DNA from: an uncultured Alphaproteobacteria bacterium
GTDB lineage: Bacteria; Pseudomonadota; Alphaproteobacteria; RF32; CAG-239
Length of the DNA stretch: 64,000 nt
Direction: 5' to 3'
Assembly: GCA_910584385.1 (NCBI GenBank)
Contig: CAJUAK010000002.1
Coordinates: forward strand, 34,418 to 98,417
Shown one piece after another: positions 12,458 to 63,977 of the stretch. A program made the position numbers and the translations under genes. Under the pieces are notes generated by a model. That model did not search any database and was not told the DNA's origin. It saw only the letters and a program-made list of their open reading frames with translations. Positions within the stretch are counted from its first letter, which is position 1, and every line of letters begins with the position of its first letter.

Positions 12458-12470
12458 AGAATGTTTTTGC

Positions 12471-12734: not shown

Positions 12735-12875
12735 TTTTGACTCCTTTTTTCGTATGTTTGCAATACTCTAACAAAGCTTGATTTTTTTTACAAGACGAAA
12801 TTTAAATAATAGCTTTTTAACTTATTTATGCTTATATAAGAAACAATGTTATGATGTTCAATTTGGAGGAATAAA

Positions 12876-14300
12876 ATGCCGCAAAATACAAAAACAAAAA
12901 TTCTGGCAACGATAGGCCCTTCTTCTGCCACGCGTGAACAGATTGAAAAATTGATTGATGCGGGGGCTGATGCTTTCCGCATTAACTTCAGCCACGGAAC
13001 CCACGCCGAACATAAAGAAAGGGTTGGCATTATCCGCAAGCTGGAAAAAGAAAAGGGCATTTATATTTCTATTTTGGCAGATTTGCAGGGGCCGAAGCTC
13101 CGTGTGGGCGTTTTCAGCTCCGACAGCGTCTTGCTGAAGGCCGGGCAGAAATTCCGCCTGGATCTTGATGAGGCTCCCGGCGATGTAACGAGAGTCAATT
13201 TGCCGCATAAGGAAATTTTTGCTGCGCTTAAGCCCGGGGAAGATTTGCTTCTTAATGATGGAAACATCCGGCTCCATGTTGATAAATGCGGTAAGGATTT
13301 TGCAGATACGACAGTGGTGGTTGGCGGTGTGCTTTCTGCCCATAAAGGGGTTAACCTGCCCAACACGCAGCTGGCGATTTCAGCCATTACCGAAAAAGAC
13401 AAAGATGATTTGAAATTCGCCTTAAAACTTGGCGTGGACTGGATCGGCATGTCTTTTGTGCAAACGGCTGACGATGTGCGCCAGGCTAAAAAGCTTATTC
13501 AGGATAAAGCGCTCCTTATTTCCAAGTTGGAAAAGCCCAGCGCGATGGAAGAACTGGATGAAATTGTCCAGCTTTCTGACGCCATTATGGTTGCCCGCGG
13601 TGATTTGGGCGTGGAATGTCCGGTTTACACGGTTCCGGTTATGCAAAAACGGATTGTCAGCGCTTGCCGCAAATATGCCCGCCCGGTTATTATTGCCACC
13701 CAGATGCTGGAATCAATGATTAATAATCCGACTCCGACAAGGGCTGAGGTTTCCGATGTGGCGACTGCCGTTTATGACGGGGCTGATGCCGTGATGCTTT
13801 CTGCAGAAACGGCTGCGGGGCATTATCCGACAGAAGCCGTGTCAATGATGCACCGCACTATTGAAAATGTGGAAGCTGATCCGCTGTTTTATACATTGAT
13901 GCGCTCGTCGCGCATGCAGCCTTGCAAAGCCAGCGAAGCCGACTCGATTACTTTTGCGGCCAGCGAAGTTTCTTGCGTGTTAAAAGATGTTGCCGCAATT
14001 GCGACCTATACGACTTCCGGCTTTACGACGTTCCTGACTGCACGCGAGCGTCCGGATTTGCCGATTATCGCCATTACGCAGACGGTTGAAGTTGCTCGCC
14101 GTTTGGCACTTGTCTGGGGAACTAAAAGCTTTATTAATAAAGATAGTTTCAAAAGTTTTGACAAAGTTGAAGATGCGGCTGTTAAAATCGCCCTTAAAAA
14201 TAATTTTGCCAAGCACGGGCAGAATCTTATTATTACTGCCGGCTATCCGTTGGCAAAGAAGGGGATGACGAATTTGCTGCATACTGTTCATATTCCCTGA
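12876..14300 (+). CDS. pyk: Pyruvate kinase.
   Basis: Full-length pyruvate kinase barrel plus C-terminal domain (KILATIGPS..., MVARGDLG). Confidence 0.9.
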   Translation: MPQNTKTKILATIGPSSATREQIEKLIDAGADAFRINFSHGTHAEHKERVGIIRKLEKEKGIYISILADLQGPKLRVGVFSSDSVLLKAGQKFRLDLDEAPGDVTRVNLPHKEIFAALKPGEDLLLNDGNIRLHVDKCGKDFADTTVVVGGVLSAHKGVNLPNTQLAISAITEKDKDDLKFALKLGVDWIGMSFVQTADDVRQAKKLIQDKALLISKLEKPSAMEELDEIVQLSDAIMVARGDLGVECPVYTVPVMQKRIVSACRKYARPVIIATQMLESMINNPTPTRAEVSDVATAVYDGADAVMLSAETAAGHYPTEAVSMMHRTIENVEADPLFYTLMRSSRMQPCKASEADSITFAASEVSCVLKDVAAIATYTTSGFTTFLTARERPDLPIIAITQTVEVARRLALVWGTKSFINKDSFKSFDKVEDAAVKIALKNNFAKHGQNLIITAGYPLAKKGMTNLLHTVHIP

Positions 14301-14313
14301 AAAGTTCGTCTAG

Positions 14314-14424
14314 CTGGTAACTAATACAGAAATAAAAAGGCGGAAGTTTCCTCACGTACCTCTATGTGCGCTGCGGTACTTCCGTTTTTATTTCTTATTA
14401 TTTACGCACGTTATCAGAACTTTC
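14314..14424. repeat. Intergenic structured repeat, type B copy 1. About 88% identical to 31585..31694.
   Basis: Direct alignment with the second copy. Contains the stem cggaagt/acttccg and the core tcacgtacctctatgtgcgct. Confidence 0.6.
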
Positions 14425-14443
14425 TTGTTGCTTAACGAATAAT

Positions 14444-14473
14444 ATAAAAAAAGCCTGCCGAAAACGGCAGGCC
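14444..14473 (-). terminator. Rho-independent terminator for rpmJ (gcctgccg aaaa cggcaggc, with a T-run on the minus strand).
   Basis: Hairpin plus A8 on the plus strand, downstream of the minus-strand rpmJ stop. Confidence 0.55.
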
Positions 14474-14495
14474 TCTCAAAACTGTCAAAAAAGGA

Positions 14496-14621
14496 CTATC
14501 CCTGACGAGCCTTCATCTTGGGATTCTTTTTATTGATGACATAAACGCGACCTTTGCGGCGGACGATTTTGCAGTCCTTGTCGCGATTTTTTTTGGTCTT
14601 TAATGAGCTGTAAACTTTCAT
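14496..14621 (-). CDS. rpmJ: 50S ribosomal protein L36, the cysteine-poor type common in alphaproteobacteria.
   Basis: Manual translation gives [41 protein letters not shown], 41 aa. The gene is below the cutoff of the supplied ORF track. Confidence 0.8.
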
Positions 14622-14778
14622 CTTCTTATCCTTTATCTCAAAAATTTATCCGCAAAATAAGCTAAATATTCCCGCTTGTCAATGATAATTTTAGATTCTT
14701 GGTAAAAATCCCAGATAATTTTTGCTTTTTTCAATCATTTTGCCTAAACTGGCTTATCTTTAACAAGAAAGAATCGTT

Positions 14779-15387
14779 ATGAAAAAATGGCTTTATCTTT
14801 TCGCTTTTTCCTTTTGTCCTTTGACGGCAGCCGCGCAGATGCCGTATATGGAAGAAATCCGCGCGCTTGGAGCAATTTCAGGCCAGGGGATGGCTTGCGG
14901 CGCTGAAAAATATGACACTTTTGAAATGCTGGTGCGTGCCATTCTCCTTTCAAAATCTCCCTCGGATGTTTTGCAGGGAAAGGCGATGTATGCATATAAT
15001 GAAGAAAAAGCTAATGCCTATATGTCTAAACAAATGGACGGATTTTATGGTTGTGCGGAAATCAACCGCCGTTTTAATGCCCAAGACATATTTAAGGCCG
15101 TTTTATATGATGACGGGACAATCCAAATGCCGGATGGCACCATTATTACGCCGCGCCGCCCGTATGATGCTAATTTTTTATATAAAAAAGACAAGGCTGT
15201 CTTAGATAAGGCGAAGGCGATTTATAACGGCAGCAATGATGCTAAGATTTTGAATGTTGATGTTAAAAATGCCGAAAACCAGAAAGTTATCTTGCCGTCC
15301 TGGGATGCTTCCGAGAAAACGCTTCCAAAATCTCAAGAGGCACCTGTTTTTGAATCTTCGGTAAAACATATCCGCCGTAAAAATTGA
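14779..15387 (+). CDS. Exported hypothetical protein.
   Basis: Signal peptide MKKWLYLFAFSFCPLTAAAQ. Confidence 0.45.
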   Translation: MKKWLYLFAFSFCPLTAAAQMPYMEEIRALGAISGQGMACGAEKYDTFEMLVRAILLSKSPSDVLQGKAMYAYNEEKANAYMSKQMDGFYGCAEINRRFNAQDIFKAVLYDDGTIQMPDGTIITPRRPYDANFLYKKDKAVLDKAKAIYNGSNDAKILNVDVKNAENQKVILPSWDASEKTLPKSQEAPVFESSVKHIRRKN

Positions 15388-15453
15388 GCTTGCGGAACTG
15401 GAAATTATCTGTATACTCGCTGTAACTTCTAAAAATTCATGGAGAAATTTGAT

Positions 15454-17130
15454 ATGGCTTCCTATCAGTATGTTTTTGTTATGCAAAATTTAACCAAGGT
15501 ATTCCCTGGCGGCAAAGAGCTTTTTAAAGGGATTACGCTGTCATTTCTGCCCGGCGCCAAAATTGGCGTTTTAGGCGTCAATGGTGCCGGTAAGTCAACG
15601 CTGCTTAAAATTATGGCAGGCGTGGATAAGGATTTTAACGGCGAGGCTTGGGCCGCAGACGGCATTAAAGTCGGCTATCTTGAACAGGAACCAAAGCTTG
15701 ACCCTGCAAAAAACGTGATGGAAAATATTATGGACGGGCTATGCGAAACCAGAGATTTATTGAAAAAGTTTGAAGAAGTTTCCATGCGTTTTGCAGAACC
15801 GATGAGCGATGAAGAAATGAATGCGCTTATTGAGGAACAGGCTGAACTTCAGGAAAAAATAGATGCTTGCAACGGTTGGGATTTGGAAAGGACTGTTGAA
15901 ATTGCCATGGATGCTTTGCGCTGCCCGCCGGCAGATGCCGATGTTACGAAACTGTCGGGCGGTGAGCGCCGCCGCGTGGCCTTGTGCCGGCTTTTGCTGC
16001 AAAAACCGGATATGCTTCTTTTGGATGAACCGACAAACCATCTGGATGCCGAATCTGTTGCCTGGCTTGAAAAATATCTTAAGGATTATGCCGGGACTGT
16101 CGTTATGGTAACGCACGACCGCTACTTTTTGGATAATGTTACCGGTTGGATTCTGGAACTTGACCGCGGGCAGGGCATACCTTATGAAGGAAATTATTCA
16201 TCTTGGCTGGAGCAGAAACAAAAGCGCTTAGAACAAGAATCGCGTGAAGAAAATGCCCGCCAAAAAACATTAGCCCGAGAATTGGAATGGATTCAGAAAA
16301 ATCCGAAAGCCCGCCAGGCAAAATCTAAGGCTCGTATTAATGCTTATGACGAGTTGTTGTCACAGACGGCAAAAGAAGGAATCTCCCAAGCTCATATTAA
16401 TATTCCGATGACAGACCGCCTTGGCGATTTGGTTATTGAAGCTGAAAACATTTCCAAAGTTTATGGCGACCGCGTGTTGATTGAAAACCTTTCTTTCAAA
16501 ATTCCCAAGGGGGCGATTGTCGGGATTATCGGGCCAAACGGTGCGGGCAAAACAACTTTGTTCCGCATGATTACCGGGCAAGAAAAGCCGGACAGCGGTT
16601 CAATCCGCTTGGGAGACACGGTTGATCTTGGCTATGTTGACCAGACCAGAGACGAACTTCATGCAGATAAGACTGTTTGGGAAGAGATTTCCGACGGGTT
16701 GGACATTATCCAGCTGGGCAAAAAAGAAATGCCTTCCCGCGCTTATGTCGGGCAGTTTAATTTTAAAAACACTGACCAGCAAAAGAAAGTGGGGCAGCTT
16801 TCCGGCGGCGAGCGCAACCGTGTGCATTTGGCTAAAATGCTTAAGAAAGGCGCAAATGTTATTCTGCTTGACGAACCGACCAATGATTTGGATGTCGATA
16901 CATTGCGTTCTCTGGAGGAAGGTATTATGAATTATCCCGGCTGCGTTTTGGTAACCTCTCACGACCGTTGGTTCCTTGACCGCCTTGCCACGCATATCCT
17001 TGCTTATGAAGGGGATGGGCATGTTGAGTGGTTTGAAGGAAACTTTGAAGACTACGAACAAGATAAACGCCGCCGACTCGGCGATGAAGCATGCAAGCCG
17101 CATCGGATGCATTATAAGAAACTTGCATAG
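15454..17130 (+). CDS. ettA: Energy-dependent translational throttle EttA (ABC-F ATPase).
   Basis: Two ABC domains with Walker A motifs (GVNGAGKST and GPNGAGKTT), signature LSGGE motifs, and an ABC-F arm/linker. Confidence 0.9.
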
Positions 17131-47974: not shown

Positions 47975-47987
47975 TTTTTTTTTTTTT
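47975..47987. repeat. Homopolymeric T13 tract (A13 on the minus strand), about 70 bp upstream of the VirB2-like gene.
   Basis: Counted directly from the sequence. Confidence 0.9.
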
Positions 47988-49993: not shown

Positions 49994-50113
49994 TTTACCG
50001 AGAGGGAAATTTTTTGTTGACATTTTATCATTTAATGGTGTATATTTACCGATAGGGAAATTTTTTATTCAAAAGGTTTTCTTTATAGTTAAAATTTACC
50101 GATGAGGAAATTT
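49994..50113 (+). promoter_or_regulatory. Three direct repeats TTTACCGA-N2-GGGAAATTT spaced about 50 bp apart. Putative operator/promoter of the hipBA-like module.
   Basis: Repeats at 49994, 50045 and 50095. The third overlaps the RBS and start of the HTH gene. Confidence 0.5.
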
Positions 50114-50320
50114 ATGAAAACAAAAGATTTGGCAGATATAATAAGAAAGAAACGCAAAGAGCAAAAACTTACCCAACCACAGTTGGCTGGGTTATGCAAT
50201 GTCGGTGTGCGGTTTATTGTTGATTTGGAATCGGGCAAAGAAACCTGTCAAATTGGCAAAGTGCTATATGTTCTGGATATGCTGGGAATTAAATTAAAAA
50301 TTGACGGAGAAAATCAATGA
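50114..50320 (+). CDS. hipB: Xre-family HTH protein (HipB-like antitoxin).
   Basis: HTH LTQPQLAGLCNVGVRFIVDLESG. Gene overlaps the hipA-like start. Confidence 0.55.
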   Translation: MKTKDLADIIRKKRKEQKLTQPQLAGLCNVGVRFIVDLESGKETCQIGKVLYVLDMLGIKLKIDGENQ

Positions 50321-51519
50321 ATTTGCTTGATGTCTATTTTCATAACAAAAAAATTGGAGTTTTAAAAGAGCATAATTCCAGATTGAGCTTCAAATATTCG
50401 GATGATGCTACAGAAGCGATTGCTCATCAGCTTCCGTTGCAAAAAGAAGCTTTTGGCGATAAAGAAACACGAAGTTTCTTTTCTAATTTATTGCCAGAAG
50501 GTGATGTGGTGAAGAAAATCGCTCAGATAAAACAAGTTTCGCTCAACAATCCATTTGCATTATTAAGAGAATTAGGCGGAGAATGTGCAGGGGCGGTTTC
50601 CCTTTATCCGCAAGATATGACACCGATTTTTGATGATACTTTGGAAGAAGTGTCTGCAGAAGAGTTGGCTACCCTTCTGAACAAGCTTTCTCAAACTCCG
50701 TTATTAACGGGCGCAGGTATTCGCTTATCGCTTGCTGGAGCACAAGAAAAACTAGCTTTAACAATTTTTCCTGATGATGAAAAGTATTATAAACCATCGG
50801 ATAAGTATATTTCTACTTGGATTTTAAAGCCTGAGAATCGGAATTTTCCAGATTTAATCTATAATGAATATTTTTGTATGAAGTTAGCAGGTCTTATGGG
50901 ATTAAATGTTGCTGAATGTAAGATTAGGATGTTTGGTTCAGTAACGGCTTATATGACAAAGCGATTTGACAGGCAGAATACTGTTCAGCGAATCCAGCAG
51001 GAAGATTTTTGCCAAGGTCTGGGGCTATCTAATAAAAAATATCAAAGAACTGAGGGAGGACCAAGCCTTAAGCAATGTTTTCAGTTCATCCATAGTAATC
51101 TGGCGAACAAGGCGAAAGATGAATTGCATTTTCTGAAAAGCATTGTTTTTAACTTTTTAATTGGTAATTCTGATGCTCACGGAAAGAATTTCTCTTATTT
51201 GCATACCGCGAACGGGTATGTTCTTTCTCCTTTGTATGATTTGGTATCTACCCAAGTTTATCCGCAACTAGCCAAAGAAATGTCAATGTCTATCGGTGGC
51301 GAGTATGAACCTGACAGAATTACCAGAACCAATTTTATGGTAATGGCAAAAGAACTTGGTGTGAAATCTCAACTTATTAATGACATTTTGGATAAATTGG
51401 CTGCAGAAATCATTGTGCAGGCAGAAAAACTCAAGGAAATGACGACAACTGAAAAAACTTATAATCCTGTTTATGATAAGGTTATAGAGGTTATTAAAGC
51501 AAGGGTTGCTCAGTTATAA
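50317..51519 (+). CDS. hipA: HipA-family serine/threonine kinase toxin.
   Basis: HipA N-terminal domain plus the catalytic loop GNSDAHGKNFS. Length 400 aa. Confidence 0.7.
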   Translation: MNLLDVYFHNKKIGVLKEHNSRLSFKYSDDATEAIAHQLPLQKEAFGDKETRSFFSNLLPEGDVVKKIAQIKQVSLNNPFALLRELGGECAGAVSLYPQDMTPIFDDTLEEVSAEELATLLNKLSQTPLLTGAGIRLSLAGAQEKLALTIFPDDEKYYKPSDKYISTWILKPENRNFPDLIYNEYFCMKLAGLMGLNVAECKIRMFGSVTAYMTKRFDRQNTVQRIQQEDFCQGLGLSNKKYQRTEGGPSLKQCFQFIHSNLANKAKDELHFLKSIVFNFLIGNSDAHGKNFSYLHTANGYVLSPLYDLVSTQVYPQLAKEMSMSIGGEYEPDRITRTNFMVMAKELGVKSQLINDILDKLAAEIIVQAEKLKEMTTTEKTYNPVYDKVIEVIKARVAQL

Positions 51520-51836: not shown

Positions 51837-52589
51837 TCATCTCATAGGGTAAAAAGCTGTAAGTCTGCTGTATTTTTGTGTGATATCTTGTATGTCTGTT
51901 TTGTTTAATTGGTATAGATTTACATACATAAAAGTAATATACAAGCATTGTAGACTTATTGATATTGCAAGAAATTTATCACAATTTGGTATATTCATAC
52001 TTGTTCCATATCTGGGCATCATTACATACGGCGCATAATGCTTATATGCACAGAATCTGTCGTAGCTTTGTTTAATATTGGTTATTTCAGGATGATTACC
52101 ATTATTTGTAAGCCGTTGTACAATATCATTAATATCTTTTGCTTCTGGTCGGTACCATTTATTATAGTAATTTTTAGGGTTTAATAGAACTTCATCAGTT
52201 AATTCCTGTCCCTGTATATTTTTTTTCAATAATCTTTTTAAATTGTTTTTCTTTATAAAATTCAGATTATCATCTTTTTCTTCTGGATGGAGGTGTAGTC
52301 CTTCTAAAAATTCTATTGTTCCAAAATCTGCATATTGGCGAACTCTTTCTTTTGGTTTATCTAACATCCAAGAGAGTAAAATAAGCCCCTCCAACATATG
52401 AGAAGCTAAAATACAAGCATTATAATAATCATTATAAAGGTGCAATACAGATTTCGCGGATGATACCATTTTTTTGTAAAAAGAAACTGTTGCGTGCTGT
52501 ATAGGACTATTCAGCTCAAAATTAATATGTTGAGTACGTTCTATCAGCGAATACAAAATTTTTTTATATTTCTTTACGTTATCATCCAT
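51837..52589 (-). CDS. Hypothetical protein co-transcribed downstream of hsdR. Possible defence accessory gene.
   Basis: Lies 10 bp after the hsdR stop on the same strand. No known domain. Contains an Rx6H segment (RLTNNGNH). Confidence 0.35.
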   Translation of the reverse strand: MDDNVKKYKKILYSLIERTQHINFELNSPIQHATVSFYKKMVSSAKSVLHLYNDYYNACILASHMLEGLILLSWMLDKPKERVRQYADFGTIEFLEGLHLHPEEKDDNLNFIKKNNLKRLLKKNIQGQELTDEVLLNPKNYYNKWYRPEAKDINDIVQRLTNNGNHPEITNIKQSYDRFCAYKHYAPYVMMPRYGTSMNIPNCDKFLAISISLQCLYITFMYVNLYQLNKTDIQDITQKYSRLTAFYPMR

Positions 52590-52598
52590 ATCTATAGT

Positions 52599-55500
52599 TT
52601 ACACCCCGCCAGAGGAAATATCGCGGAAACGATTGAAGAATGCAATAATCTTTTGAATTACGGTTTCTCTCTTTTTTTGCCGTCTTTTTTGTGGGTCTAT
52701 GATTGGGAGTGGAGGTAAAACCTTATTAATTTGTATTCCGTTTTCCTGAACATAACCATTTTTGAAGGCATTATTGACATATTTGTAGGTTTCTTCCTTG
52801 TTTAAATTTTCTTCTTCAATAATTTTATTCAGCTCTGTTATTTTCTGTTCATTAACATATTTTTTCCAATCCTCATCAACATTACTGGTGGGTGTGAGCG
52901 AGTCAATAAAGTTTTCAATGAGGTCTTTTTTGCTGCGTAACTCAATACTGGCATCAACAGATTTCAAAATACTAACTTTAATTTCTTTATCTTCCATATG
53001 ACCTGCGTGATATTTTTTAATCAGCATTAGGATATAATCAATATTAATTTCAACCTGTTTAATCAGTTCAATCTCAAAAACAAGGTCATCATTAACATTG
53101 TCTTTTTCTTTGCCTTGGGGGCGCAGTTCATCATAAATCCTTAAATATTGGCTATGATAATCTTGTACATTCCGTTCGGTTAAAATTTCTTTTCCTGCAA
53201 ATTCATCAAATGAAGATAAAATATTTTTCAATCGCAGGATTGCACCATAGAGTTTAACAAAATCCCGCTTTTCTTTTTCACTGAAAATTAGCTCTCCAGC
53301 GGGATATGTTTCTACCAACTCCTCAATCAGTTCTTTGTAACCTTTAACAGTTTTGCCTTTATCATCGGTATAACCATTATAATATTCGGCAAAAGTTTTG
53401 AGCAATACGATACCACCCGCTTCTTTATCGCCAAACAAAGCAAGGCTCTTATTGGTTGCCTCTTCCAAATTGCGGAAACACACAATATTACCAAAGGCTT
53501 TAACAGCATTCAAAATACGGTTGGTGCGGGAAAATGCCTGCAACAGTCCTTGCATTCTTAAATTTTTATCCACCCACAGGGTATTTAAGGTCGTGGCATC
53601 AAAACCTGTTAAGAACATATTGACCACAATCAGCAGGTCAATTTCTCGGTTTTTCATTCGCATAGATACATCTTTGTAATAATTTTGGAATTTGTCGCTT
53701 GATGTATCGTAAGATGTCCCAAACATTTTATTATAGTCGTCAATGGCACTTTCCAGAAAATCTCTGTCGCTTTTATCCAATTTGCTGGTATCTTCTGGAT
53801 TTTCATCAAATACGCCGTCATCAGAATTATCATCACCATTCATTCCAAAACTAAAAATGGTTGCAACTTTGAGCTTCTGTAAAGGTTTTTCAGCCATTTG
53901 CTTTCTAAATTCTTCATAATAGAGTTTGGCAAACGGAATGGAAGAAACGGCAAAAATGGAATTAAAACCTGTCAGCCGAACTTTTTGTTTTATTTCATCA
54001 ATATCTTTGCGGTTTTTCGCTTGGGCAATATCTGCAATGTTGGTCAAAATATTATAGCTGTAAGACCTGTCGTTTCGCATTGTTTTCTGGTTAAAATGTT
54101 CCAAGATATAAGAAACGATACGAGATATTCTTTCAGGAGCAGCTAGGGCTTTTTCGCGGTTAATATCCCAAACTTTGGAATCTTTAATATTTTCCTGTTC
54201 TTTCATCGTACTGATGTAATCAATACGAAACGGCAAAACATTTTTATCGGCAATTGCATCAACAATTGTATAAGTATGTAATTGCTCACCAAATAACTGG
54301 GCTGTTGTTTTAAGGTCGGATTTGCAACCTGTATGAGCATTTTCGGCAAATATCGGCGTGCCTGTAAAGCCGAACAGATGATATTTTTTAAAGGCTTTGG
54401 TGATAGTCTGGTGCATCTCACCGAATTGGCTTCGGTGGCATTCGTCAAAAATTATCACAAGATGCTGGTTATAGACGGGATGTTCTTTATTTTGTTTGAT
54501 GAAGCAGGTTAATTTCTGAATTGTGGTAATAATGATGCGGGCATTAGGATTTTCAAGCTGTTTTTTCAAAACTGCCGTGCTGGTGTTGCTGTTGGCAGCT
54601 CCTTTTTGAAACTTGTCATATTCTTTCATTGTTTGGTAATCAAGGTCTTTCCTGTCTACCACAAACAAAACCTTGTCTATAATCGCCATATTCTGGGCAA
54701 GCTGTGCCGTTTTGAACGAGGACAGCGTTTTTCCCGAGCCTGTGGTGTGCCAAATATAGCCACCGCCATCTACTGTGCCATATTGTTTATAATTGCTTGC
54801 AATATTGATTTTATTGATAATGCTTTCGGTTGCCACAATCTGATAAGGACGCATTACCATCAGCATTTCATCAGATGTAAAAACGCAATATCTGGTCAAA
54901 ATATTTAGAAGTGTGTGTTTGGCAAAAAAGGTTTTGGCAAAATCAATTAAATCAATAATCGGTTTGTTTTTTCTATCAGCCCACCAAGAGGTAAATTCAA
55001 AACTGTTGCTGGTCTTTTTGCCCTTTTTTGAAGATGTTCCAGCATTTTCGCTGATATGCGATTGACGGGTGGTGTTACTGTAATACTTGGTATATGTGCC
55101 GTTTGAGATAACAAATATCTGCACAAATTCATATAAACCGCTTCCTGCCCAGAAACTATCGTTTTGATAACGGTTGATTTGGTTAAACGCATCTTTAATA
55201 TCAACACCGCGGCGTTTTAATTCTATATGTACCAAAGGCAAGCCATTAACCAAAACGGTGGCATCATAACGATTAGCTCTTGCTCCATCGTCCGTTTCAT
55301 ACTGATTGATAACCTGCAAAGTGTTGTTGTGGATGTTATCCTTATCTATCAGCAGGATATTGCGAAAAAGATAATTATCAACGGGCTTTTCATAATAAAG
55401 AACTTTTTTATAATCTTCTTGGATTATCTTGGTCTTTTCTTTAATACCGAAATTAGGATTGGCAATTTCCTGTTTGAAAAAAGTATCCCACTCTTTGTCT

Positions 55501-55727
55501 GTGAAGTGGTAATCGTTTAATTTTTCCAGTTGGCAGCGTAAGTTATCAATCAGGTCTTTTTCTGAATGAATTGGCAAATAATCGTATGCTTGATTTTGCA
55601 ATTGTTTAATGAACGCTTTTTCAAGGTCCGCCTCGGATTGATATTCGGTTTGCTTGGTTTCTACCGCCTGATATTCGGCAACAACTGTGCTTTCAGGATT
55701 TTCGGCAACGACACTAATTTTGTTCAT
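52599..55727 (-). CDS. hsdR: Type I restriction enzyme R subunit.
   Basis: 1042 aa with the PD-(D/E)xK region, helicase motifs (TGSGKT, DECHRSQ) and a Type I HsdR C-terminal helical domain. Confidence 0.9.
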   Translation of the reverse strand: MNKISVVAENPESTVVAEYQAVETKQTEYQSEADLEKAFIKQLQNQAYDYLPIHSEKDLIDNLRCQLEKLNDYHFTDKEWDTFFKQEIANPNFGIKEKTKIIQEDYKKVLYYEKPVDNYLFRNILLIDKDNIHNNTLQVINQYETDDGARANRYDATVLVNGLPLVHIELKRRGVDIKDAFNQINRYQNDSFWAGSGLYEFVQIFVISNGTYTKYYSNTTRQSHISENAGTSSKKGKKTSNSFEFTSWWADRKNKPIIDLIDFAKTFFAKHTLLNILTRYCVFTSDEMLMVMRPYQIVATESIINKINIASNYKQYGTVDGGGYIWHTTGSGKTLSSFKTAQLAQNMAIIDKVLFVVDRKDLDYQTMKEYDKFQKGAANSNTSTAVLKKQLENPNARIIITTIQKLTCFIKQNKEHPVYNQHLVIIFDECHRSQFGEMHQTITKAFKKYHLFGFTGTPIFAENAHTGCKSDLKTTAQLFGEQLHTYTIVDAIADKNVLPFRIDYISTMKEQENIKDSKVWDINREKALAAPERISRIVSYILEHFNQKTMRNDRSYSYNILTNIADIAQAKNRKDIDEIKQKVRLTGFNSIFAVSSIPFAKLYYEEFRKQMAEKPLQKLKVATIFSFGMNGDDNSDDGVFDENPEDTSKLDKSDRDFLESAIDDYNKMFGTSYDTSSDKFQNYYKDVSMRMKNREIDLLIVVNMFLTGFDATTLNTLWVDKNLRMQGLLQAFSRTNRILNAVKAFGNIVCFRNLEEATNKSLALFGDKEAGGIVLLKTFAEYYNGYTDDKGKTVKGYKELIEELVETYPAGELIFSEKEKRDFVKLYGAILRLKNILSSFDEFAGKEILTERNVQDYHSQYLRIYDELRPQGKEKDNVNDDLVFEIELIKQVEINIDYILMLIKKYHAGHMEDKEIKVSILKSVDASIELRSKKDLIENFIDSLTPTSNVDEDWKKYVNEQKITELNKIIEEENLNKEETYKYVNNAFKNGYVQENGIQINKVLPPLPIIDPQKRRQKKRETVIQKIIAFFNRFRDISSGGV

Positions 55728-56886
55728 TATTATTCTCCTTTTCTGCTTGTAATTCTAAGTAGCAAGCAGTGATAGTCAATAATTTTATTTCATCATATGA
55801 CATTGTTTCTACATCAATATCTACCCATTTTTTAGCGAATTGTTTAGAAAAACTTTGAGCACGCTGTAATCCCCAAATTTTATCTGTATTTATATTTTCA
55901 TTTAAATATGAAAATATTTTTTCTCTATCATAACCAAACGTTTGATAAGTGTTTTTGGGGTAAGCGTATATTATCTCATCTACTATATTTGCTAATTTAT
56001 CATAATCTAAATTGTCAACACTATCACAAATTTGAGGTATCGATGAAATTATAATATTTCTTATTCGTTGTACAGAATTCTTATTCTTACTATTTTCTGA
56101 TTCATATTTTAAAAACTTTATAAAGCACTCTATCTCATAAGTATCACAAAATCTTTCATTAAGAGTATCATAAACTTCTTGCAATATCTGTATGTCTGAT
56201 TGGTTTCTGTTTATTTTCTTTCTTTTCCATTCTTCTTTTTTGTTTTCTATTCTTCTTTCTAACTCATTTTTGACTAATATAAGCTGTTCATATCTGTTTT
56301 TTATAAAAGATTTCAATGAATCATAAGGGACGTACAGTGTTTTTGTTGCAGACTGTTGGTTAGAATAAACAAGGATGCCAATGCAATCTTTTTTTAAATT
56401 ATTAAAATCAGATAAAAGAAATGGCGAATAATGTATTTCGTTTTTTTCTTTTAGAAAGGGAGCTCGGCTAGTATTAAGAGGATGGGCAAATATGAGAGCT
56501 CTTAAATATTCAAAAAATTTAATATCAGTTGGACAGTTATCACCTATTAAATATAATGGCGCGTCTGCACAAACATTCATAAAATGCTTTTTTATTTCTT
56601 TTTGTTCGTCTTTAATTTTAAGTTGTTCCATTGTTTCTTGTACTGCATCTTTTATAATACAAGAATGGAGCATAAAAAGCATAATATCGTTCATATTTTG
56701 AGAAGATGTATTGTATTGGTTTAAAAATTCAACACTATCGTCTACTCTATCCATTACCGCACAGATAAGATTGTAATTGCGCTTCTCTTGTTCATCGCGA
56801 TGGAATATTCTTGATGAATTAACAACTTTCCTTAATTCTTTACAAATATTTCCATCTAAAAAATCCATATTAGGCAGCCTCTTCAA
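55714..56886 (-). CDS. Uncharacterised protein embedded between hsdS and hsdR. Possible HEPN-type abortive-infection protein.
   Basis: Overlaps both neighbouring genes. No NTPase motif. Rx5H motif at EYLRALIFAHP. Confidence 0.35.
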   Translation of the reverse strand: MKRLPNMDFLDGNICKELRKVVNSSRIFHRDEQEKRNYNLICAVMDRVDDSVEFLNQYNTSSQNMNDIMLFMLHSCIIKDAVQETMEQLKIKDEQKEIKKHFMNVCADAPLYLIGDNCPTDIKFFEYLRALIFAHPLNTSRAPFLKEKNEIHYSPFLLSDFNNLKKDCIGILVYSNQQSATKTLYVPYDSLKSFIKNRYEQLILVKNELERRIENKKEEWKRKKINRNQSDIQILQEVYDTLNERFCDTYEIECFIKFLKYESENSKNKNSVQRIRNIIISSIPQICDSVDNLDYDKLANIVDEIIYAYPKNTYQTFGYDREKIFSYLNENINTDKIWGLQRAQSFSKQFAKKWVDIDVETMSYDEIKLLTITACYLELQAEKENNNEQN

Positions 56887-57496
56887 AAGTCAGTAGTTTA
56901 TTTCTGTAATATTCATATTGTTGCCTGCGAGCAGTGAGTTCGGCAGGCAAGCCTTCTGAAATATCATTAACAAGGCTATCAAACTTATCTAAAATTGCAA
57001 CAATTCTTTCCTGTTCTTCTATTGGAGGAAAACCGAATTTAAATTTACTCATTGCAATATCATTTATTCTCATTACCTTTACACCAGTTATACATTTTTT
57101 CTTTTGTTCAAAGAATGCATTTGTTTGAAATAGGTATGACATATATTTAGGATTTTGATTATGATGATAGATAAAAGCATCACCACTAATGCAAATATCC
57201 TCATTGCCTAACCAAGCAACCGCTTTGCCAACATCCTCAACATTTTCACTAGTGGTTGCAATAATTAAATCTCCTGTTCGTGCTTTTTTTAACTTTTCAG
57301 CTAAGTTGTTGGAAACGTAAGATTTTGTTCGTTCTGCAAAAGTACCATAATAGGTATAGATTTGTCCATAATGAATACACCCAACACCTGTATCCGTAAA
57401 ATCCTTCTTTTGCAAACCATTACCTCTGATAAATGTTCCAACCTCTTCAAGTTGCATAAATTTAATTCTGCCCCCCCCCCGTTGTATTTTTATCAA
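56870..57496 (-). CDS. hsdS: Type I restriction specificity subunit, C-terminal half (TRD2 plus distal conserved region). It is out of frame with the N-terminal half at the G10 tract.
   Basis: Ends ARRQQYEYYRNKLLTFEEAA, a duplicate of the central conserved motif. The frame is offset by +1 relative to the upstream half. Confidence 0.8.
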   Translation of the reverse strand: MIKIQRGGGRIKFMQLEEVGTFIRGNGLQKKDFTDTGVGCIHYGQIYTYYGTFAERTKSYVSNNLAEKLKKARTGDLIIATTSENVEDVGKAVAWLGNEDICISGDAFIYHHNQNPKYMSYLFQTNAFFEQKKKCITGVKVMRINDIAMSKFKFGFPPIEEQERIVAILDKFDSLVNDISEGLPAELTARRQQYEYYRNKLLTFEEAA

Positions 57497-58130
57497 AAGT
57501 TAGGAGTTTGTTACGGTAGTATTCATATTGCTTCTTTCTCGCCTCCAGCTCCGCCTCCAGCTCCGCCTCCAGCTCCGCCTCCAGCGAGCTAAAAGCATCC
57601 AGAATCCGCACAACCTCTTCCTGCACAGGAAGAGGAGGGACAGGAATTTTTAGTGATAAAACTGCTTTCATAGAAGGATGTTGGATACCAGCGCCCCGAT
57701 AAAAAGAACTAATAAGTTCAATATTATTTGACATCCAATAATATAAAAACTTATTGCTCAAAACATTTGTATCATTTGATGTAGCAATCCTGTTATCACC
57801 AGTAATAAACTTTCCTTTGTAATATTTGACATTTGGTGTTCCCCCCCAAGGAATTGCTACAATTTCACCATTGCATAAATTATTCCCCGCCAATTCTTCT
57901 GTTGTGTATTTTATTTCACCAATTCCAGTTGATAAAATCCTGACATCTCCATTTTTTACAACAAGAGCGTTTACATCATTTGCCAACAGGTATGGATATT
58001 TAATAACTTTTTTTTGTTTTTCTTTTTCCACACCATTAAACTTCTTATCCCAAGATGTCAGTTCCCATAATTCCTTAAATTGAACCCCATTCGGGCAATA
58101 TTGCTTTATCAAATCATCAATCTTACTCAT
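57462..58130 (-). CDS. hsdS: Type I restriction specificity subunit, N-terminal half (TRD1 plus central conserved region with LEAE repeats). It terminates 2 codons after the G10 tract.
   Basis: Contains VPPLPVQEEVVRILDAF...LEAELEAELEAELEARKKQYEYYRNKLLTF and ends ...TTGGGQN*. Confidence 0.8.
   Translation of the reverse strand: MSKIDDLIKQYCPNGVQFKELWELTSWDKKFNGVEKEKQKKVIKYPYLLANDVNALVVKNGDVRILSTGIGEIKYTTEELAGNNLCNGEIVAIPWGGTPNVKYYKGKFITGDNRIATSNDTNVLSNKFLYYWMSNNIELISSFYRGAGIQHPSMKAVLSLKIPVPPLPVQEEVVRILDAFSSLEAELEAELEAELEARKKQYEYYRNKLLTFDKNTTGGGQN
57471..57480 (-). repeat. Homopolymeric C10 tract (G10 on the coding strand) at the hsdS half-gene junction.
   Basis: Counted directly. Removing one G would fuse the two halves in frame. 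Confidence 0.9.
57541..57588 (-). repeat. 12-bp tandem repeat (gcctccagctcc, about 3.8 copies) encoding (LEAE)n in the hsdS central spacer region.
   Basis: Three perfect copies plus one partial copy read directly. Confidence 0.9.
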
Positions 58131-58141
58131 CTTGTACTTCC

Positions 58142-58915
58142 TTATAACTTCAAAACTTTTCTAAGTTCTTTTAATCTGTCTGCGGTTTGAATATTCTCAA
58201 CTATTGAACTTATTAATTCTTTTAATGGTAAATATTCATTTAATGCTGTTTTATCATCAAATTCTCCGTGGACGATATTACTTAATTCTTGGAACAATTC
58301 GTACTTTCTATCATCTAATCCGTGAGGAATAATGTGTGCTTTTTTATTAGCTTCTTTTAGTTTTTCTTTAAAATTTAAAGTACTATCTATGTTATGCTTT
58401 TTTACAATTTCACTTACAATTGTTTCATATATCTTTCGCAAATATATAATTGCTCCCGCACCTAATCCCTCTCTATAGGCCTTATCTGCGGCGTCAAACA
58501 GTTCAATATATTTTGAAGTTGGTTTATAACTAACACTTTCAGATAGTTTATCTGAATATTTAATAATTCTAACTTTGGGAATTTGGGAGTGAATTTCATT
58601 TTCGCTTTCAATTAAAAACCAAGCAGGAATAGATGTTTCGCAAAATAAACAAGTTAAGACACAATCTATACTTATCATTTTTTCGTTTATTCCAATGCAA
58701 TGAACGGAACAAGGTTTAACAGGGTTATATAAGCAAAACGATTGCATCTTATTGCACTTTTTGCAAAAGAAATCTATTTGTATGTTACCAACCTCAATTT
58801 TTTTTAATTTTCCTCTATTGAGAAATTTTCCATCTAAAAAACCGTCTACAGGCTGAAAATCTGCTGATGGTTTAGTTGATAATATGTCGCTTAATCTCAT
58901 ATTATCACTCTCCAA
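58142..58915 (-). CDS. Zinc-ribbon plus DUF4145/HEPN-like domain protein embedded in the Type I operon.
   Basis: N-terminal Cys cluster (CKKCNK...CSVHC...CLFC). C-terminal AGAIIYLRKIYE...LSNIVHGEFD resembles DUF4145 (HEPN). Confidence 0.4.
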   Translation of the reverse strand: MESDNMRLSDILSTKPSADFQPVDGFLDGKFLNRGKLKKIEVGNIQIDFFCKKCNKMQSFCLYNPVKPCSVHCIGINEKMISIDCVLTCLFCETSIPAWFLIESENEIHSQIPKVRIIKYSDKLSESVSYKPTSKYIELFDAADKAYREGLGAGAIIYLRKIYETIVSEIVKKHNIDSTLNFKEKLKEANKKAHIIPHGLDDRKYELFQELSNIVHGEFDDKTALNEYLPLKELISSIVENIQTADRLKELRKVLKL

Positions 58916-58933
58916 ATGTGATGTTTTTGTATT

Positions 58934-60001
58934 TTATTCATCATTTTTGCCCTCAACAGAATCTTTTGATTTTTTGTTGTTTATCATATTTTCCAACTCT
59001 AAAAAGTAGTCAAAATCGCTATGATAAAGCCTATCTTGAATGATGCGATATTTTTCAAACTCTGTTTCAGCGTGTTGTTTAGCAAGTTCTGCTGATATTT
59101 TTCCAGCTCCCTGCAAAATATCCCTTCGTGTTAATCTTAATAAACCATCCAGTTGAGATGCCCAATCTTCCATTGTCATCGGCATATTTCTTTCTGCTTG
59201 GGATTCTGCCAAATCAAGATATGCGTTGACAATACGTCCCATTGCTCTCAGTTCTTCTTCGGTTAAATAATTCTTCGCAACACTGACATCATATTTATGA
59301 ATTTTACTTTGAGGTGCTCCTTCCCAAGTTGTCAGTCCCATATGCTCTTTGTTGGCATCAGCACGATTATAAATAACCTCTGCAGCGGTTTGTCCGTGAA
59401 TAGCCCAATGCAGTTTATTTTGCACCTTTGCAAAAAACTCTTGCGTCGTTTTAGATTTAGCATCGTAATCAACGCTCGTGGCATAAATATCCGTTATTTT
59501 TTGATAGAACATCCGTTCAGACATACGAATTTCTCTAATCCGCTGCAGTTGTTCTTCAAAATATTTTTTTGTCAGTATTGAGCCGCCTCGTTTAATGCGC
59601 TCATCATCCATTGCATAAGCTTTTATGGTGTATTGCTCAATAATATCATTAGCCCATTTACGAAATTGCACGGCTTTGGGAGAATCGACTTTATTACCAA
59701 CGGCAATAATTGCTTTTAAATTATAATGGTTGGTTTCGTATGTTTTTCCATCAGTGGCAGTTATTCGAAATTTTCGAATAACTGAATTTTCATCTAACTC
59801 CATATCACTAAAAATTTTTTTCAGATGATAATTAATAGTATTTGTTTCTACATTATACAAAATACCCATCATCTTTTGCGTAAGCCAAACGTTTTCATCA
59901 GCATAAATTGCCTCAATACCACTTTCTCCCGTAGCGGTAATAAATGTGAGATATTCAGCCGCGGAGCTTCTGATAGTAATTTCCTTTTTTTTAGCCATCA
60001 C
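58934..60001 (-). CDS. rhuM: RhuM-family protein.
   Basis: Conserved [11 protein letters not shown] and [13 protein letters not shown] blocks. Typical position between hsdM and hsdS. Confidence 0.7.
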
Positions 60002-61557
60002 GCCACTCCTTCCAAATCGGCAACGATGGCATCTATTTGCTGTCGTAACTCATTTTGTTTAGCCACAATTTGTTTGATTTGCTCATTTAAGACGGTAATA
60101 TCAATTTTTTCACGGATGTCTTTCTGCTCAACATAGGAAGAAACCGAGATATTGTAATCGTTCTCGCCAATTTTATCGTTTTTAACTAATTTACAGAAAT
60201 GTTCTTTATCTTCCCGTTTAATGTAGGCTTGCAAGATGTTTGCAATATTCTCATCAGTCAGTTTATTCTTATTGCCAGAATGGATAAATTCATTGCTTGC
60301 ATCAATAAACAAAACGGCATTGTCTTTTTTGCTCTTCTTCAAAACAATGATGCAGGTTGCAATACTCACGCCAAAGAATAAGTTGGCGGGAAGCTGAATC
60401 ACACAATCAACAAAGTTGTTGTCAATCAGATACTTACGAATTTTCTGCTCTGCCCCGCCGCGATATAAAACCCCAGGAAATTCTACGATTGCTGCCGTTC
60501 CGTCGGCCGCCAGCCAATTAAGCATATGCATCGTAAAAGCAAGGTCTGCTTTGCTTCGCGGTGCTAAAACACCAGCAGGAGAATAACGAGGGTCGTTGAT
60601 TAGGGTAACATCACTGTCCCCAGCCCAAGAGATAGAATAGGGCGGATTGGATACAATCGCCTCAAACGGCTCATCATTCCAATGTTTTGGGTCGGTTAAA
60701 GTATCTCCCAATGCAATATCAAATTTTTCATAATTGATATTGTGCAAAAACATATTAATACGGCAGAGATTGTAGGTTGTAATATTAATTTCCTGTCCGT
60801 AAAATCCATCTTTTACGTTTTCCTGCCCCAGAATTTTGGCAAATTTCAGCAGCAACGAACCCGAACCGCAGGCGGGGTCATAAACTTTATTGACTGATGT
60901 TTTGCCAACTAATGTAATTTTTGCCAAGAGTTCTGAAACTTCTTGCGGCGTAAAAAACTCACCACCTGATTTTCCTGCACTGCTGGCGTACATTGTCATT
61001 AAATATTCGTAAGCATCACCAAAAGCATCTATGGTATTGTCGGTAAAATTGCCAAGTTTTAACTCCTTGATAGAGGCTAAAATCTTAACCAGTTTCTCAT
61101 TTCTTTTTTGAACTGTTGCTCCCAGTTTATTGCTGTTAACATCAATATCTGCAAATAAGCCCTTGAAATCATCTTCACTGGCTGTTCCCTGTGCGGAGGC
61201 TTCAATATCACGGAATGCTTTGCTCAATGTTTCGTTTAAATTGGGATTGTTCTTGGCTTTTTTTTGCACATTTTGAAACAATTCACTAGGTAGAATAAAA
61301 AAACCTTTGGTAGAAACGGCGTACTCTCGGGCTGTTTCGGCGTTTTCATCAGTTTCTTTGGTATAATCATAGTCAGCAATACCGCTTTCCCTCTGTAATT
61401 TATTGATATATGCGGTGATATTTTCAGAGATAAAGCGATAGAACAGAATCCCCAGCACATAGGATTTGAAATCCCAACCATCAACGCTGCCTCGCAAATC
61501 ATTGGCAATTTGCCAGATAATTCTGTGTAATTCCGCTCTTTCTTGCTCTTTAGTCAT
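59998..61557 (-). CDS. hsdM: Type I restriction-modification DNA methyltransferase subunit (N6-adenine).
   Basis: HsdM N-terminal domain, AdoMet motif I ([12 protein letters not shown]) and motif IV (NPPYS). Confidence 0.9.
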
Positions 61558-61786: not shown

Positions 61787-62350
61787 ATGATGATTTTTAA
61801 TTATATACGAGTTTCTACGATTGAGCAAAATACTGAACGGCAGTTAAGGGATGTTGTTTGCGACAGGGTATATGAAGAAAAAATTAGTGGTAAGGATACC
61901 AACCGTCCCCAATTACAGGCAATGCTGTCCAATATCCGTTTTGGGGACATCATTAATATTCACGAAATGAGTCGTCTGGCTCGTAATACTCGTGATTTAT
62001 TAAATCTGGTAGAGGAAATTACCTCAAAAGGAGCAACAGTTGTTTTTCATAAGGAAAACTTAACTTTCAAAGGTAATGAAAAACAAGACCCATATCAAAA
62101 AATGATGATGACTATGCTTGGAGCTGTGGCAGAGTTGGAACGCAATTTAATATTGGAACGCCAACGAGAGGGAATTGCTCTTGCTAAACTGCACAACAAG
62201 TATAAAGGCGGTCAGCCTAAGCTAACTGCCGAACAGGTTACAGAATTAACCACACTTTACAAGCAAGGAATGCCTATCGCACGCATTGCCAAGCAATTTA
62301 AAATAACTCGTCCAACGGTTTATTCTTACTTAAAAAATGAAGAGAAATGA
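61787..62350 (+). CDS. Small serine recombinase (resolvase/invertase family) with a C-terminal HTH.
   Basis: Catalytic YIRVSTIEQ (Ser10), the conserved ERQREGI block and a C-terminal HTH IARIAKQFKITRPTVY. Confidence 0.8.
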   Translation: MMIFNYIRVSTIEQNTERQLRDVVCDRVYEEKISGKDTNRPQLQAMLSNIRFGDIINIHEMSRLARNTRDLLNLVEEITSKGATVVFHKENLTFKGNEKQDPYQKMMMTMLGAVAELERNLILERQREGIALAKLHNKYKGGQPKLTAEQVTELTTLYKQGMPIARIAKQFKITRPTVYSYLKNEEK

Positions 62351-62371: not shown

Positions 62372-63052
62372 TCAATTTGGTGAAGGAGCATTTAGATTCG
62401 TATTCAAAATAACAGATTCAACAATTTTTCTGGCTAATTCTGTTACATTCCAACCTGCACTGTTAAAGTTATAGGTGGATTTTATGCCTTTGGGGGCATC
62501 TAAAAAAGTGATAAGAGCATACTCCTGCCCCTGATAGATAAAATGTCCCAAAAATGTTGTAACAATATCATCAGGATTATCTAACTTGTAGTCTGTTGCC
62601 GTTAGGCCATAGATAGAAATACCTTCAATGTTTATTTTCTTTGCTGCCCCGTTGGTAACATTGCCTCTTAACTCTTCCAGTTCTTTTTTACCTGCTGATT
62701 TGATGAAAGAGGTATAATCTTGGATAAACTGTGATGTGGTTGCCAATCTATCCTTTTTCAAAAGTTTCATAATGTTGTTGGGCGTATATGAAAAATCTTT
62801 ATTGTAGTCAAAACTTTCTAAAATACTGATGGAGGCGGAATTTAGAACTTCATCGTTTTCCAAATTCACCAGAATAAAAGCACCTCCTGCGGTATTAAAT
62901 TTTTCAACTTCCTCTGCCAATACACTATAATTTCTTTTGCAAATAGCTTCTTCTGTATTGCAGGTTTCGGAGAAAGATTTATTGTTGGAGATGTTTTTAT
63001 ACGAACATCCCATCAAAATTAAAGAAAACATTAAAAAAACTATTTTTTTCAT
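62372..63052 (-). CDS. Lipoprotein of unknown function.
   Basis: MKKIVFLMFSLILMGC lipobox. Confidence 0.45.
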   Translation of the reverse strand: MKKIVFLMFSLILMGCSYKNISNNKSFSETCNTEEAICKRNYSVLAEEVEKFNTAGGAFILVNLENDEVLNSASISILESFDYNKDFSYTPNNIMKLLKKDRLATTSQFIQDYTSFIKSAGKKELEELRGNVTNGAAKKINIEGISIYGLTATDYKLDNPDDIVTTFLGHFIYQGQEYALITFLDAPKGIKSTYNFNSAGWNVTELARKIVESVILNTNLNAPSPN

Positions 63053-63053
63053 A

Positions 63054-63977
63054 TTACTTCTCCTTTTTTGTTAAAACATTCTGCAATGTTTGATGAACAA
63101 CCTGACACCAATGAGTGTAAATGTAAGGAAGAGTATTACGAGTTTCCTCGCCTAACAACTCTTTTTTTACCTCATCATAAAATTCTTTACGAACGATAAG
63201 TTTGTTTCCAAAGCCCATTCCGATGCGTCGCCATTTTTCAAAAAATTCTTCATCAAGCCCTCCAGTCCACGGATAAATTTTTGTTATCGGAGAAAAAATA
63301 GTTTGGACTTCATCTACAATTTCATTATTCAAAAGTTCAATGAAATATTGTTTAATTTCATTATCTTCAACAACAAAAAAACGGGCTGTTTTTGCAAATC
63401 CCATTCCTCCTGGAACCGTAGCCGCAACAAACATTATATCATTTGGATTAATCTGTTTGAGAGTCTGCAAATTCAGTTTTTGAAACAAAAATCCGTGCTC
63501 ATCTATTTGTTCTGGATAACTTTCTTCAAAAGAAAATTCACGAGGGTCTTCCACCATTTTTCTTGCTGTAAAAGACAATTCTCGTTTGCACCCACATAAA
63601 TACAAATCAATATTGGGAAAATCATTTCTTAAATTTATATCTATATGACAACCCAACCATTCATCAGAATAAAAAAGAGATTGTCCGAAATTAATTTTCA
63701 TCGGATATGTTTTAAATAGATTTATCTCAACAGTTAAGTCAAATTCATGATTTAAGAAATCGCTATTATACACTTTCAAATATTTTGAAACAAAATATTC
63801 TTTTGAAACAAGCGGCTTCTCCCCGTTATCATCAACCACAGAAGTTTCTTCATCGTTTATCCTAATCGTTCCGCTATCTATATGAAATTGAATATAGTCG
63901 TCTATATAATAATAATCTTTACGAACAGATTCGGCTTTGTCAAAATTTATTCCAAATCTTATTCCAAGTAGGCTCAA
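63054..63977 (-). CDS. Hypothetical protein.
   Basis: 307-aa ORF immediately upstream of, and co-oriented with, the lipoprotein gene. No recognised domain. Confidence 0.35.
   Translation of the reverse strand: MSLLGIRFGINFDKAESVRKDYYYIDDYIQFHIDSGTIRINDEETSVVDDNGEKPLVSKEYFVSKYLKVYNSDFLNHEFDLTVEINLFKTYPMKINFGQSLFYSDEWLGCHIDINLRNDFPNIDLYLCGCKRELSFTARKMVEDPREFSFEESYPEQIDEHGFLFQKLNLQTLKQINPNDIMFVAATVPGGMGFAKTARFFVVEDNEIKQYFIELLNNEIVDEVQTIFSPITKIYPWTGGLDEEFFEKWRRIGMGFGNKLIVRKEFYDEVKKELLGEETRNTLPYIYTHWCQVVHQTLQNVLTKKEK

Follow-up and report, generated by a model that had tools for sequence, protein, structure and literature searches.

A Type IC restriction-modification operon with varying passenger genes, candidate back-up anti-phage modules, in an uncultured alphaproteobacterium

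The 64,000 nucleotides of contig CAJUAK010000002.1 that we analyzed (assembly GCA_910584385.1 of an uncultured Alphaproteobacteria bacterium, positions 34,418 to 98,417), called the window from here on, contain a Type I restriction-modification (R-M) operon in which four genes that are not part of the R-M enzyme stand between and behind the hsd genes. We refer to each of these four genes as a passenger: one is rhuM, and the other three carry the working labels P257 (open reading frame (ORF) 58142-58915), P390 (ORF 55714-56886) and P250 (ORF 51837-52589). On balance our analysis favors the picture of one Type IC operon of the EcoR124, EcoprrI and NgoAV kind, the passengers of which would probably be separate back-up anti-phage modules. 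A previous inspection of the letters without database searches (the sequence-only reading) had already described a Type I operon with four non-R-M genes. All eight of its minus-strand ORFs between 51837 and 61557 were found again in the ORF list with the same coordinates and order, and the profile searches yield a Type IC hsd set with the four other genes lying in or after the hsd slots (Table 1).

The picture of separate modules is derived from a comparison of near-identical operon backbones, for which the window proteins were searched with tblastn against related loci (hsdM 95–96% and hsdR 94–97% identical). The window carries RhuM, P257, P390 and P250, and the nearest genome match, an uncultured gut alphaproteobacterial metagenome-assembled genome (L001), carries a 46%-identical RhuM together with P390 and P250. 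RhuM, P257 and P250 are found in L069, P257, P390 and P250 in L070, P257 and a 70%-identical P250 in L066 and L067, and P257 only in L071 and L072, so that RhuM is either missing from such backbones or swapped for the 46%-identical allele. The locus L068 has a 70%-identical P250 as well, and its hsdS-hsdR slot is occupied by an AAA_13 protein. As passenger sets vary on backbones that are 94–97% identical, the slots take alternative cargo and the enzyme needs no passenger; since the combinations differ on near-identical hsdM and hsdR, the passengers are independent cassettes and not one obligate system; the sequence-only reading had proposed a candidate composite defence system.

The AAA_13 protein of L068 (368 aa, positions 2976-4082 of that locus, backbone 96% identical) shows an ABC-type motif and a C-terminal R290-x3-E294...H328, and it has no NCBIfam name. 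A glutamic acid belongs to the catalytic R-x3-E...H pattern of the anticodon nuclease-type passenger PrrC. In these features of its sequence the L068 protein resembles PrrC. For PrrC itself Arg320 and His356 have been described as catalytic residues (PMC1484252). In more distantly related systems the position after hsdR also gathers defence-type genes: in the P257 operon of L061 an AAA_15/AAA_21 ATPase is followed there by a UvrD-type helicase and an HNH protein (12958-16774), and in those of L062 to L064 a reverse transcriptase is followed by RelB/YafQ (~13800-15400). Across distant taxa the linkage to Type I genes is strong for P257 and frequent for P390 and for DUF5677, the family to which we relate P250 below. 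All three families of unknowns occur in R-M or defence contexts, in line with the sequence-only reading, and are essentially missing from viral contigs (2.9 million such contigs contained one relative of P257 and none of P390).

The assignment to Type IC follows from the hsd genes themselves, as the HsdM methyltransferase domain, the HsdR motor with an EcoR124-type C-terminus and an HsdS with two target recognition domains (TRDs) and a central helix with four-residue repeats are all present, and hsdR is Type IC because of its EcoR124_C match. Between the longest ORFs the junctions from hsdM to P250 measure -4, +18, +11, -35, -17, -14 and +9 nt, so the genes are indeed tightly packed, although the earlier statement that all gaps are 10 bp or less does not hold for the +18 and +11 junctions. 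The longest ORF of P257 reaches 58915 (257 aa), but the later ATG is favored by the homologues and by a GGAGAG 8 nt upstream of it, leaving a gap of 33 nt after rhuM. Similarly, the longest ORF of P390 reaches 56886 (390 aa), and here homologues and the arrangement TAAtATG, 1 nt past the hsdS stop, favor the later ATG. A consensus scan revealed no convincing intrinsic terminator between the operon genes on the minus strand, and promoter-like hexamers are present upstream of hsdM (61759-61732), such matches being no commoner than in shuffled sequence. Co-transcription of the operon genes is therefore only called plausible here. The GC content is ~0.45-0.47 over the housekeeping genes at 44.5-47.3 kb (FliX, DksA, Maf, RNase E/G family) and 0.30-0.38 from ~47.5 kb through the operon, and because of this drop relative to the neighboring housekeeping genes we place the operon in an accessory stretch of low GC on the chromosome of a gut alphaproteobacterium. 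A run of T13 is found at 47975-47987, near the GC shift, and scans for tRNA and Rfam elements gave no element marking an island boundary.

Table 1. Features of the operon and its flanks, with positions in the window.
Feature	Position	Strand	Evidence and remarks
hsdM, Type I N6-adenine methyltransferase subunit, 519 aa	59998..61557	-	Pfam N6_Mtase 1e-117, HsdM_N 2e-20
rhuM-family passenger, 355 aa, first in hsdM-hsdS slot	58934..60001	-	PF13310 Virulence_RhuM 1e-106; PADLOC candidate PDC-S05 4e-146
P257, Cys4 beta domain and predicted divergent HEPN-fold domain, second in hsdM-hsdS slot	58142..58900	-	likely ATG start 58900, 252 aa
hsdS N-terminal half, 222 aa, TRD1 and central helix, putative HsdS200-type phase variant	57462..58130	-	Methylase_S 2e-18
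12-bp tandem repeat, 3.8 copies, encodes (LEAE)3 in HsdS central helix	57540..57585	-	TRF period 12, 100% matches
G10 homopolymer (C10 on plus strand), frameshift site at TRD1/TRD2 junction of hsdS	57471..57480	-	sequence
hsdS C-terminal half, TRD2, out of frame with N-terminal half	56870..57496	-	Methylase_S 6e-12
P390, invariant D121 and R129-x5-H135, in hsdS-hsdR slot	55714..56868	-	likely ATG start 56868, 384 aa
hsdR, Type IC restriction/translocase subunit, 1042 aa	52599..55727	-	HSDR_N, SWI2_SNF2, T1R_D3-like, EcoR124_C 8e-67; TIGR00348 2e-165
P250, DUF5677-related passenger, 250 aa, 9 nt past hsdR	51837..52589	-	13/20 aligned relatives match PF18928
Small serine recombinase (resolvase/invertase type), divergent from hsdM	61787..62350	+	Resolvase 4e-36, HTH_7
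hipB-like antitoxin (50102-50320) and hipA kinase toxin (50317-51519)	50102..51519	+	HipA_C 2e-54, Couple_hipA; TIGR03070 couple_hipB 5e-22

The sequence-only reading had listed hsdS in two halves. Two ORFs are present, and they represent one gene broken at the G10 tract, because L069, having G9 and an identical downstream flank, reads through to an uninterrupted HsdS of 397 aa; the idea of two separate genes was rejected for this reason. In the window the N-terminal frame stops four codons past the tract (ACG GGG GGG GGG CAG AAT TAA), and removal of one G would join the halves in frame as in L069. Among the other relatives the gene is intact in L070 (G9) and L066 (G8) and split in L067 (G9) as well as in L071 and L072 (G10), and the number of LEAE copies is two in L066 and L069 and three in L067 and L070. 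Comparable hsdS G tracts were also seen in the Bacillota-like loci L043, L084 and L103. A switch of this kind is known from NgoAV of Neisseria gonorrhoeae, where a poly-G tract toggles HsdS between ~400 and ~200 residues, the short HsdS dimerises and recognises a palindromic site, and LEAT repeats fix the spacer length (10.64898/2026.01.10.698759). The window gene shares with NgoAV the position of the poly-G tract at ~nt 650, the switch between ~400 and ~200 aa and a four-residue repeat in the central helix (LEAE here) with two or three copies among relatives, but it belongs to another organism and has other TRDs, and its switching is predicted. From these features we conclude that hsdS is a predicted case of NgoAV-type phase variation, here in the half-size state, and that the window allele encodes a short HsdS which is possibly still functional.

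P257 has 318 homologues, all of them unnamed. In a model calculated with AlphaFold2 (AF2) from the family alignment (predicted local distance difference test score 86) residues 21-122 form an all-beta domain and residues 137-254 a domain of five helices, and the latter is, according to this model, a divergent HEPN fold. C51, C54, C89, C92, R160, E164, S212 and H216 are 100% conserved in 121 family sequences. The canonical HEPN motif Rx4-6H is not present in these sequences, as the His (H216) is kept and the Arg is not: ahead of H216 stand E210 (95%), the invariant S212 and the variable residue 209, which is Arg in 28/121. P257 did not match any model of Pfam, NCBIfam or PADLOC (PADLOC 2.0.0, E up to 1), nor did its relatives show a consistent PADLOC match (E up to 0.01), and DUF4145 (PF13643) was found neither in P257 (E up to 0.1) nor in 52 relatives (E up to 0.05). 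When the family was compared by hhalign with the DUF4145 domain of the hsdR from L151, 78 columns were collinear at an E of 0.11, which is not significant, with RKxxE opposite RKALE, LSN-VH opposite LGNLAVH and E210 opposite a basic residue. Thus, from the earlier description of a Cys-rich ribbon followed by a DUF4145-like HEPN region, the Cys-rich part (now an invariant Cys4 set) and the HEPN-fold part stand, and the likeness to DUF4145 is not supported, as the profile match and the Arg are missing. Other matches were inspected as well: a DUF5677 match of P257 (E 0.066) recurs in 0/52 relatives and was rejected, zf_UBZ and UBR4 matches scattered among the relatives reflect the Cys motifs only, and a PDB profile match to histone H2A (E 0.025 over ~40 residues) was treated as chance. 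PHROG matches of the three unknowns were marginal, among them phrog_1305 'DNA binding protein' for P257 (1.4e-5). Comparison among the families by hhalign gave no similarity of P257 with either P250 or P390.

The genomic placement of P257 was analyzed in 80 metagenomic loci, mostly with ~40% identical proteins. The gene directly upstream is hsdM in 27 and RhuM in 38 of them, and hsdS follows downstream in 65 of the ~73 loci in which this could be assessed; the loci L061 to L065 show the same placement. The closest characterised architecture is that of RAZR (PD-T7-4), a zinc-finger and DUF4145-HEPN RNase with the catalytic pair R146/H154 that is switched on by phage ring proteins (PMC13017515). 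P257 is likened to it by architecture, having a beta domain with the invariant C51/C54/C89/C92, a predicted Zn-finger, ahead of its HEPN-fold domain. It differs in its N-terminal domain, which is all-beta and ~120 aa long in contrast to the ~65-aa ribbon of RAZR, in the loss of the catalytic Arg with only the His kept, and in being embedded in Type I operons, whereas RAZR acts as a single gene. HEPN families that keep the His and lose the Arg have been described; they may use other basic residues, and HEPNs that have lost the motif are regarded as domains for binding (PMC3710099).

For P390 a word-indexed search found 178 homologues and a profile search of 1.84 billion representatives 685 clusters (50% identity). 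Nearly all relatives are single-domain proteins of 380-430 aa; the longer P0359 and P0318 have N-terminal extensions that do not contain any Pfam domain. In 120 cluster representatives R129 is conserved in 120, H135 and D121 in 119 each, and R47 and P155 in 98%, and this invariance makes the Rx5H a true signature of the P390 family. With the acidic D121 upstream it fits the Rx4-6H motif of HEPN active sites. The motif pointed out in the sequence-only reading is therefore real, but the HEPN identity attached to it is not supported, as profile searches and a comparison with solved folds gave no match to HEPN. P390 also has no match in Pfam, NCBIfam or PADLOC, and no Pfam or PADLOC match is consistent among its relatives. 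Its context was studied in 58 genome loci, which come from Alphaproteobacteria, many Bacillota, Bacteroidota and other taxa; 26 of them contain hsd genes and ~20 have hsdR directly downstream of P390. Outside the slot P390 was seen beside an EcoEI-type Type I system, an MmeI-type R-M enzyme and a UvrD helicase. A stand-alone copy in Ruminococcus lies in a prophage-like region, and the one on a Bacillus cereus plasmid is next to an integrase, a NACHT protein and a HEPN/MNT pair.

The third unknown, P250, has 26 homologues. Of 20 aligned relatives, 49-78% identical to it, 13 match PF18928 (best 1e-11), although P250 itself does not reach this profile at E up to 0.1. As only the relatives match, its membership is one of transitive homology, by which P250 is a predicted DUF5677 relative. 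Matches to Pfam, NCBIfam and PADLOC models were not obtained with P250, and a PDB sequence-profile search was empty. S63-H64, E67, R82, K183-H184, P187 and R193 are invariant in the family. The Rx6H segment that had been noted earlier (R160..H167) exists in the window protein, but both of its residues vary in the family alignment, and in the alternative Rx5H (R178 with H184) R178 varies. No link of P250 to HEPN was found, including any profile similarity to the P257 family. Relatives of P250 stand directly past hsdR in L066 to L068, alone in L149, where the island also contains genes for an SLFN-type helicase, AAA_14 and AIPR, and just upstream of a different Type I system on an integrase-bearing element in L151. 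In the latter locus two unannotated genes (336 and 593 aa) are inserted around hsdS, and hsdR has an N-terminal DUF4145 (HEPN) domain (7868-14756). An hhalign comparison of P250 (90-193) with P390 (47-158) gave an E of 0.0015 and a probability of 16%, too weak to use; it pairs 'KHYSPYVM' with 'EIHYSPFLL', so that the invariant prolines P187 and P155 lie opposite each other, and DUF5677 and P390 may be distantly related.

RhuM is the passenger for which a precedent was already known (PMC3710099), and it scores 356 bits against PF13310 (cut-off 33.7). In the list of P250 homologues we also noticed P0260 (412 aa), in which a RhuM domain is joined to 63% of P250 (83% identical) and which may be a real RhuM-DUF5677 fusion or an assembly or frameshift artefact.

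Passengers in R-M operons are an established paradigm. PrrC is held latent by EcoprrI, and 16 HEPN clades as well as RhuM have been linked to R-M, among them a Zn-ribbon-fused DUF4145 and Arg-less, His-keeping HEPN families embedded in R-M operons (PMC3710099). The window operon follows the same genomic logic, to which a multi-pronged defence has been ascribed, with RhuM between hsd genes and P257 fitting the category of HEPN with conserved His and no Arg; P257 and P390 are not recognised by current Pfam, NCBIfam, PADLOC and PHROG models, and both families appear to be undescribed in the model libraries that we searched. With EcoprrI-PrrC the operon shares the Type IC hsd genes and a non-R-M gene inserted right at the junction of hsdS and hsdR; the Arg/His pair of P390 is invariant, and the L068 backbone puts its PrrC-like R-x3-E...H AAA_13 protein into the very slot of P390. 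Against this, P390 has no ABC/AAA_13 NTPase and neither sequence nor fold similarity to PrrC, and about half of its relatives are found away from R-M genes. In the Ronin system the effector RonA is linked to an hsdM/hsdS decoy and is proposed to be freed when anti-restriction proteins bind the methyltransferase (10.1101/2023.04.06.535777). Here, too, passenger genes are linked to hsdM and hsdS, but RonA is a 61-aa membrane peptide in a system that has no hsdR, whereas the window has an intact hsdR and soluble passengers of 250-390 aa.

The two internal junctions and the 3' end of the Type IC operon serve as cassette slots. By analogy to these systems we propose that each passenger would be made alongside the R-M enzyme and kept inactive, probably through contact with HsdM, HsdS or HsdR following the logic of PrrC and Ronin, and would be unleashed once a phage blocks or overwhelms restriction. 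P390 would most likely be a metal-independent nuclease using R129 and H135 together with D121. P257 would most likely be an RNA-binding module or a non-canonical HEPN RNase module, with the Cys4 domain as sensor or docking part comparable to RAZR, and RhuM and the DUF5677 protein may be further effectors. A more far-reaching version, which we put forward only tentatively, is that P390 founds a class of restriction-guard effectors that has no solved fold relative, a D...R-x5-H center and the position of PrrC, that the Type I complex keeps silent with no NTPase switch involved, and that kills or arrests the cell upon anti-restriction; P257 would then be a Zn-finger/HEPN sensor dedicated to Type I systems that sits on the HsdM-HsdS core.

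Several points weigh against these proposals. The defence roles are argued from context and analogy, and the co-transcription is read from the spacing of the genes. Fold and profile searches with P390 returned nothing resembling HEPN or any solved fold, a PDB sequence-profile search was empty, and the residue following R129 is Ala or Ser instead of the N, D or H usual in HEPN, so that we consider it doubtful that P390 is a HEPN-type RNase. No AAA_13 or other NTPase domain, by which PrrC is regulated, was detected in P390 or in 61 relatives. As roughly every second locus with P390 shows no R-M gene within 10 kb, coupling to R-M is not obligatory for this family. In the case of P257 the missing HEPN Arg, the missing DUF4145 profile match and an hhalign E of only 0.11 make an RNase activity doubtful, and we lean, if not strongly, against P257 being catalytically active. 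Moreover, a DUF5677 gene alone was not among the genes protecting Enterococcus faecalis against six phages (PMC12632615).

The flanks of the operon contain further mobile or toxin-type genes (Table 1). The serine recombinase is weakly Mpi-like, and an 88%-identical copy adjoins hsdM in L001 as well; its role in the operon is only putative. Recombinases of this kind have been named as markers of defence loci in a recent preprint (PMC12632615). The hipB-hipA pair is convergent with the operon end, and the same flank is kept in L001 and L069. Beyond the recombinase two minus-strand ORFs (226 and 307 aa, 62372-63977) have no Pfam match, and the first of them opens with a lipoprotein-like signal sequence (MKKIVFLMFSLILMGCS).

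Another explanation, although an unlikely one in our view, is that P257, perhaps together with P390, belongs to the Type IC enzyme as an accessory or regulatory subunit and is not a toxic back-up effector. They might control its assembly, restriction alleviation, the balance of methylation versus restriction, or the expression of hsdS or hsdR, and the HEPN domain of P257 would be non-catalytic and nucleic-acid-binding. P257 being almost never found outside the hsdM-hsdS junction would fit well to such a subunit, as would its lack of the catalytic Arg, given what is thought of HEPNs without the motif (PMC3710099), and the overlapping or abutting of the P390 coding region with hsdS and hsdR. However, the backbones of L001, L068 and L071, 94-97% identical to the window, occur with and without P257 and P390, so the enzyme needs neither of them; about half of the P390 copies stand alone, and the complete conservation of H216, R160 and E164 in P257 suggests an active or ligand-binding site.

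Even less probable is a selfish nature of the passengers, as addiction or hitch-hiking cassettes which use the Type I junctions as safe, co-expressed landing sites and have no role in defence. Their fast gain and loss on identical backbones, the serine recombinase and hipBA adjoining the operon, and the stand-alone copies near integrases and in prophage-like regions are all in line with it. But an addiction cassette is hard to reconcile with P390 having no recurring antitoxin-like partner and no shared neighbor family in 24 stand-alone loci, with the precise use of the slots and their translationally tight junctions, and with known defence genes (a PrrC-like protein, a reverse transcriptase) occupying the same slots elsewhere. 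An obligate composite in which the hsd genes and all four passengers work only together, the strongest form of the earlier proposal, is very improbable, since in spite of the tight spacing on one strand and a metagenomic contig in which the full order hsdM-RhuM-P257-hsdS-P390-hsdR-P250 recurs, every sub-combination exists on 94-97% identical backbones, P390 is present in only 6 and P250 in only 2 of the 80 P257 loci, and P390 and DUF5677 also occur alone.

In summary, we favor the reading of the passengers as separate back-up modules of one Type IC operon. Type I restriction is among the commonest bacterial defences and is routinely disarmed by phages, and PrrC and Ronin show that the enzyme can be booby-trapped. 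Two more families are now physically tied to Type I operons, namely P390 with 685 clusters and P257 with >300 metagenomic loci, and the near-identical backbones with differing cassettes, one of them PrrC-like in the P390 slot, are ready-made experimental controls. If the passengers turn out to be inert, the locus would be an ordinary accessorised R-M operon. If they are guards, two families could be added to the tools for defence annotation, and the sensing of restriction failure without an NTPase would become testable.

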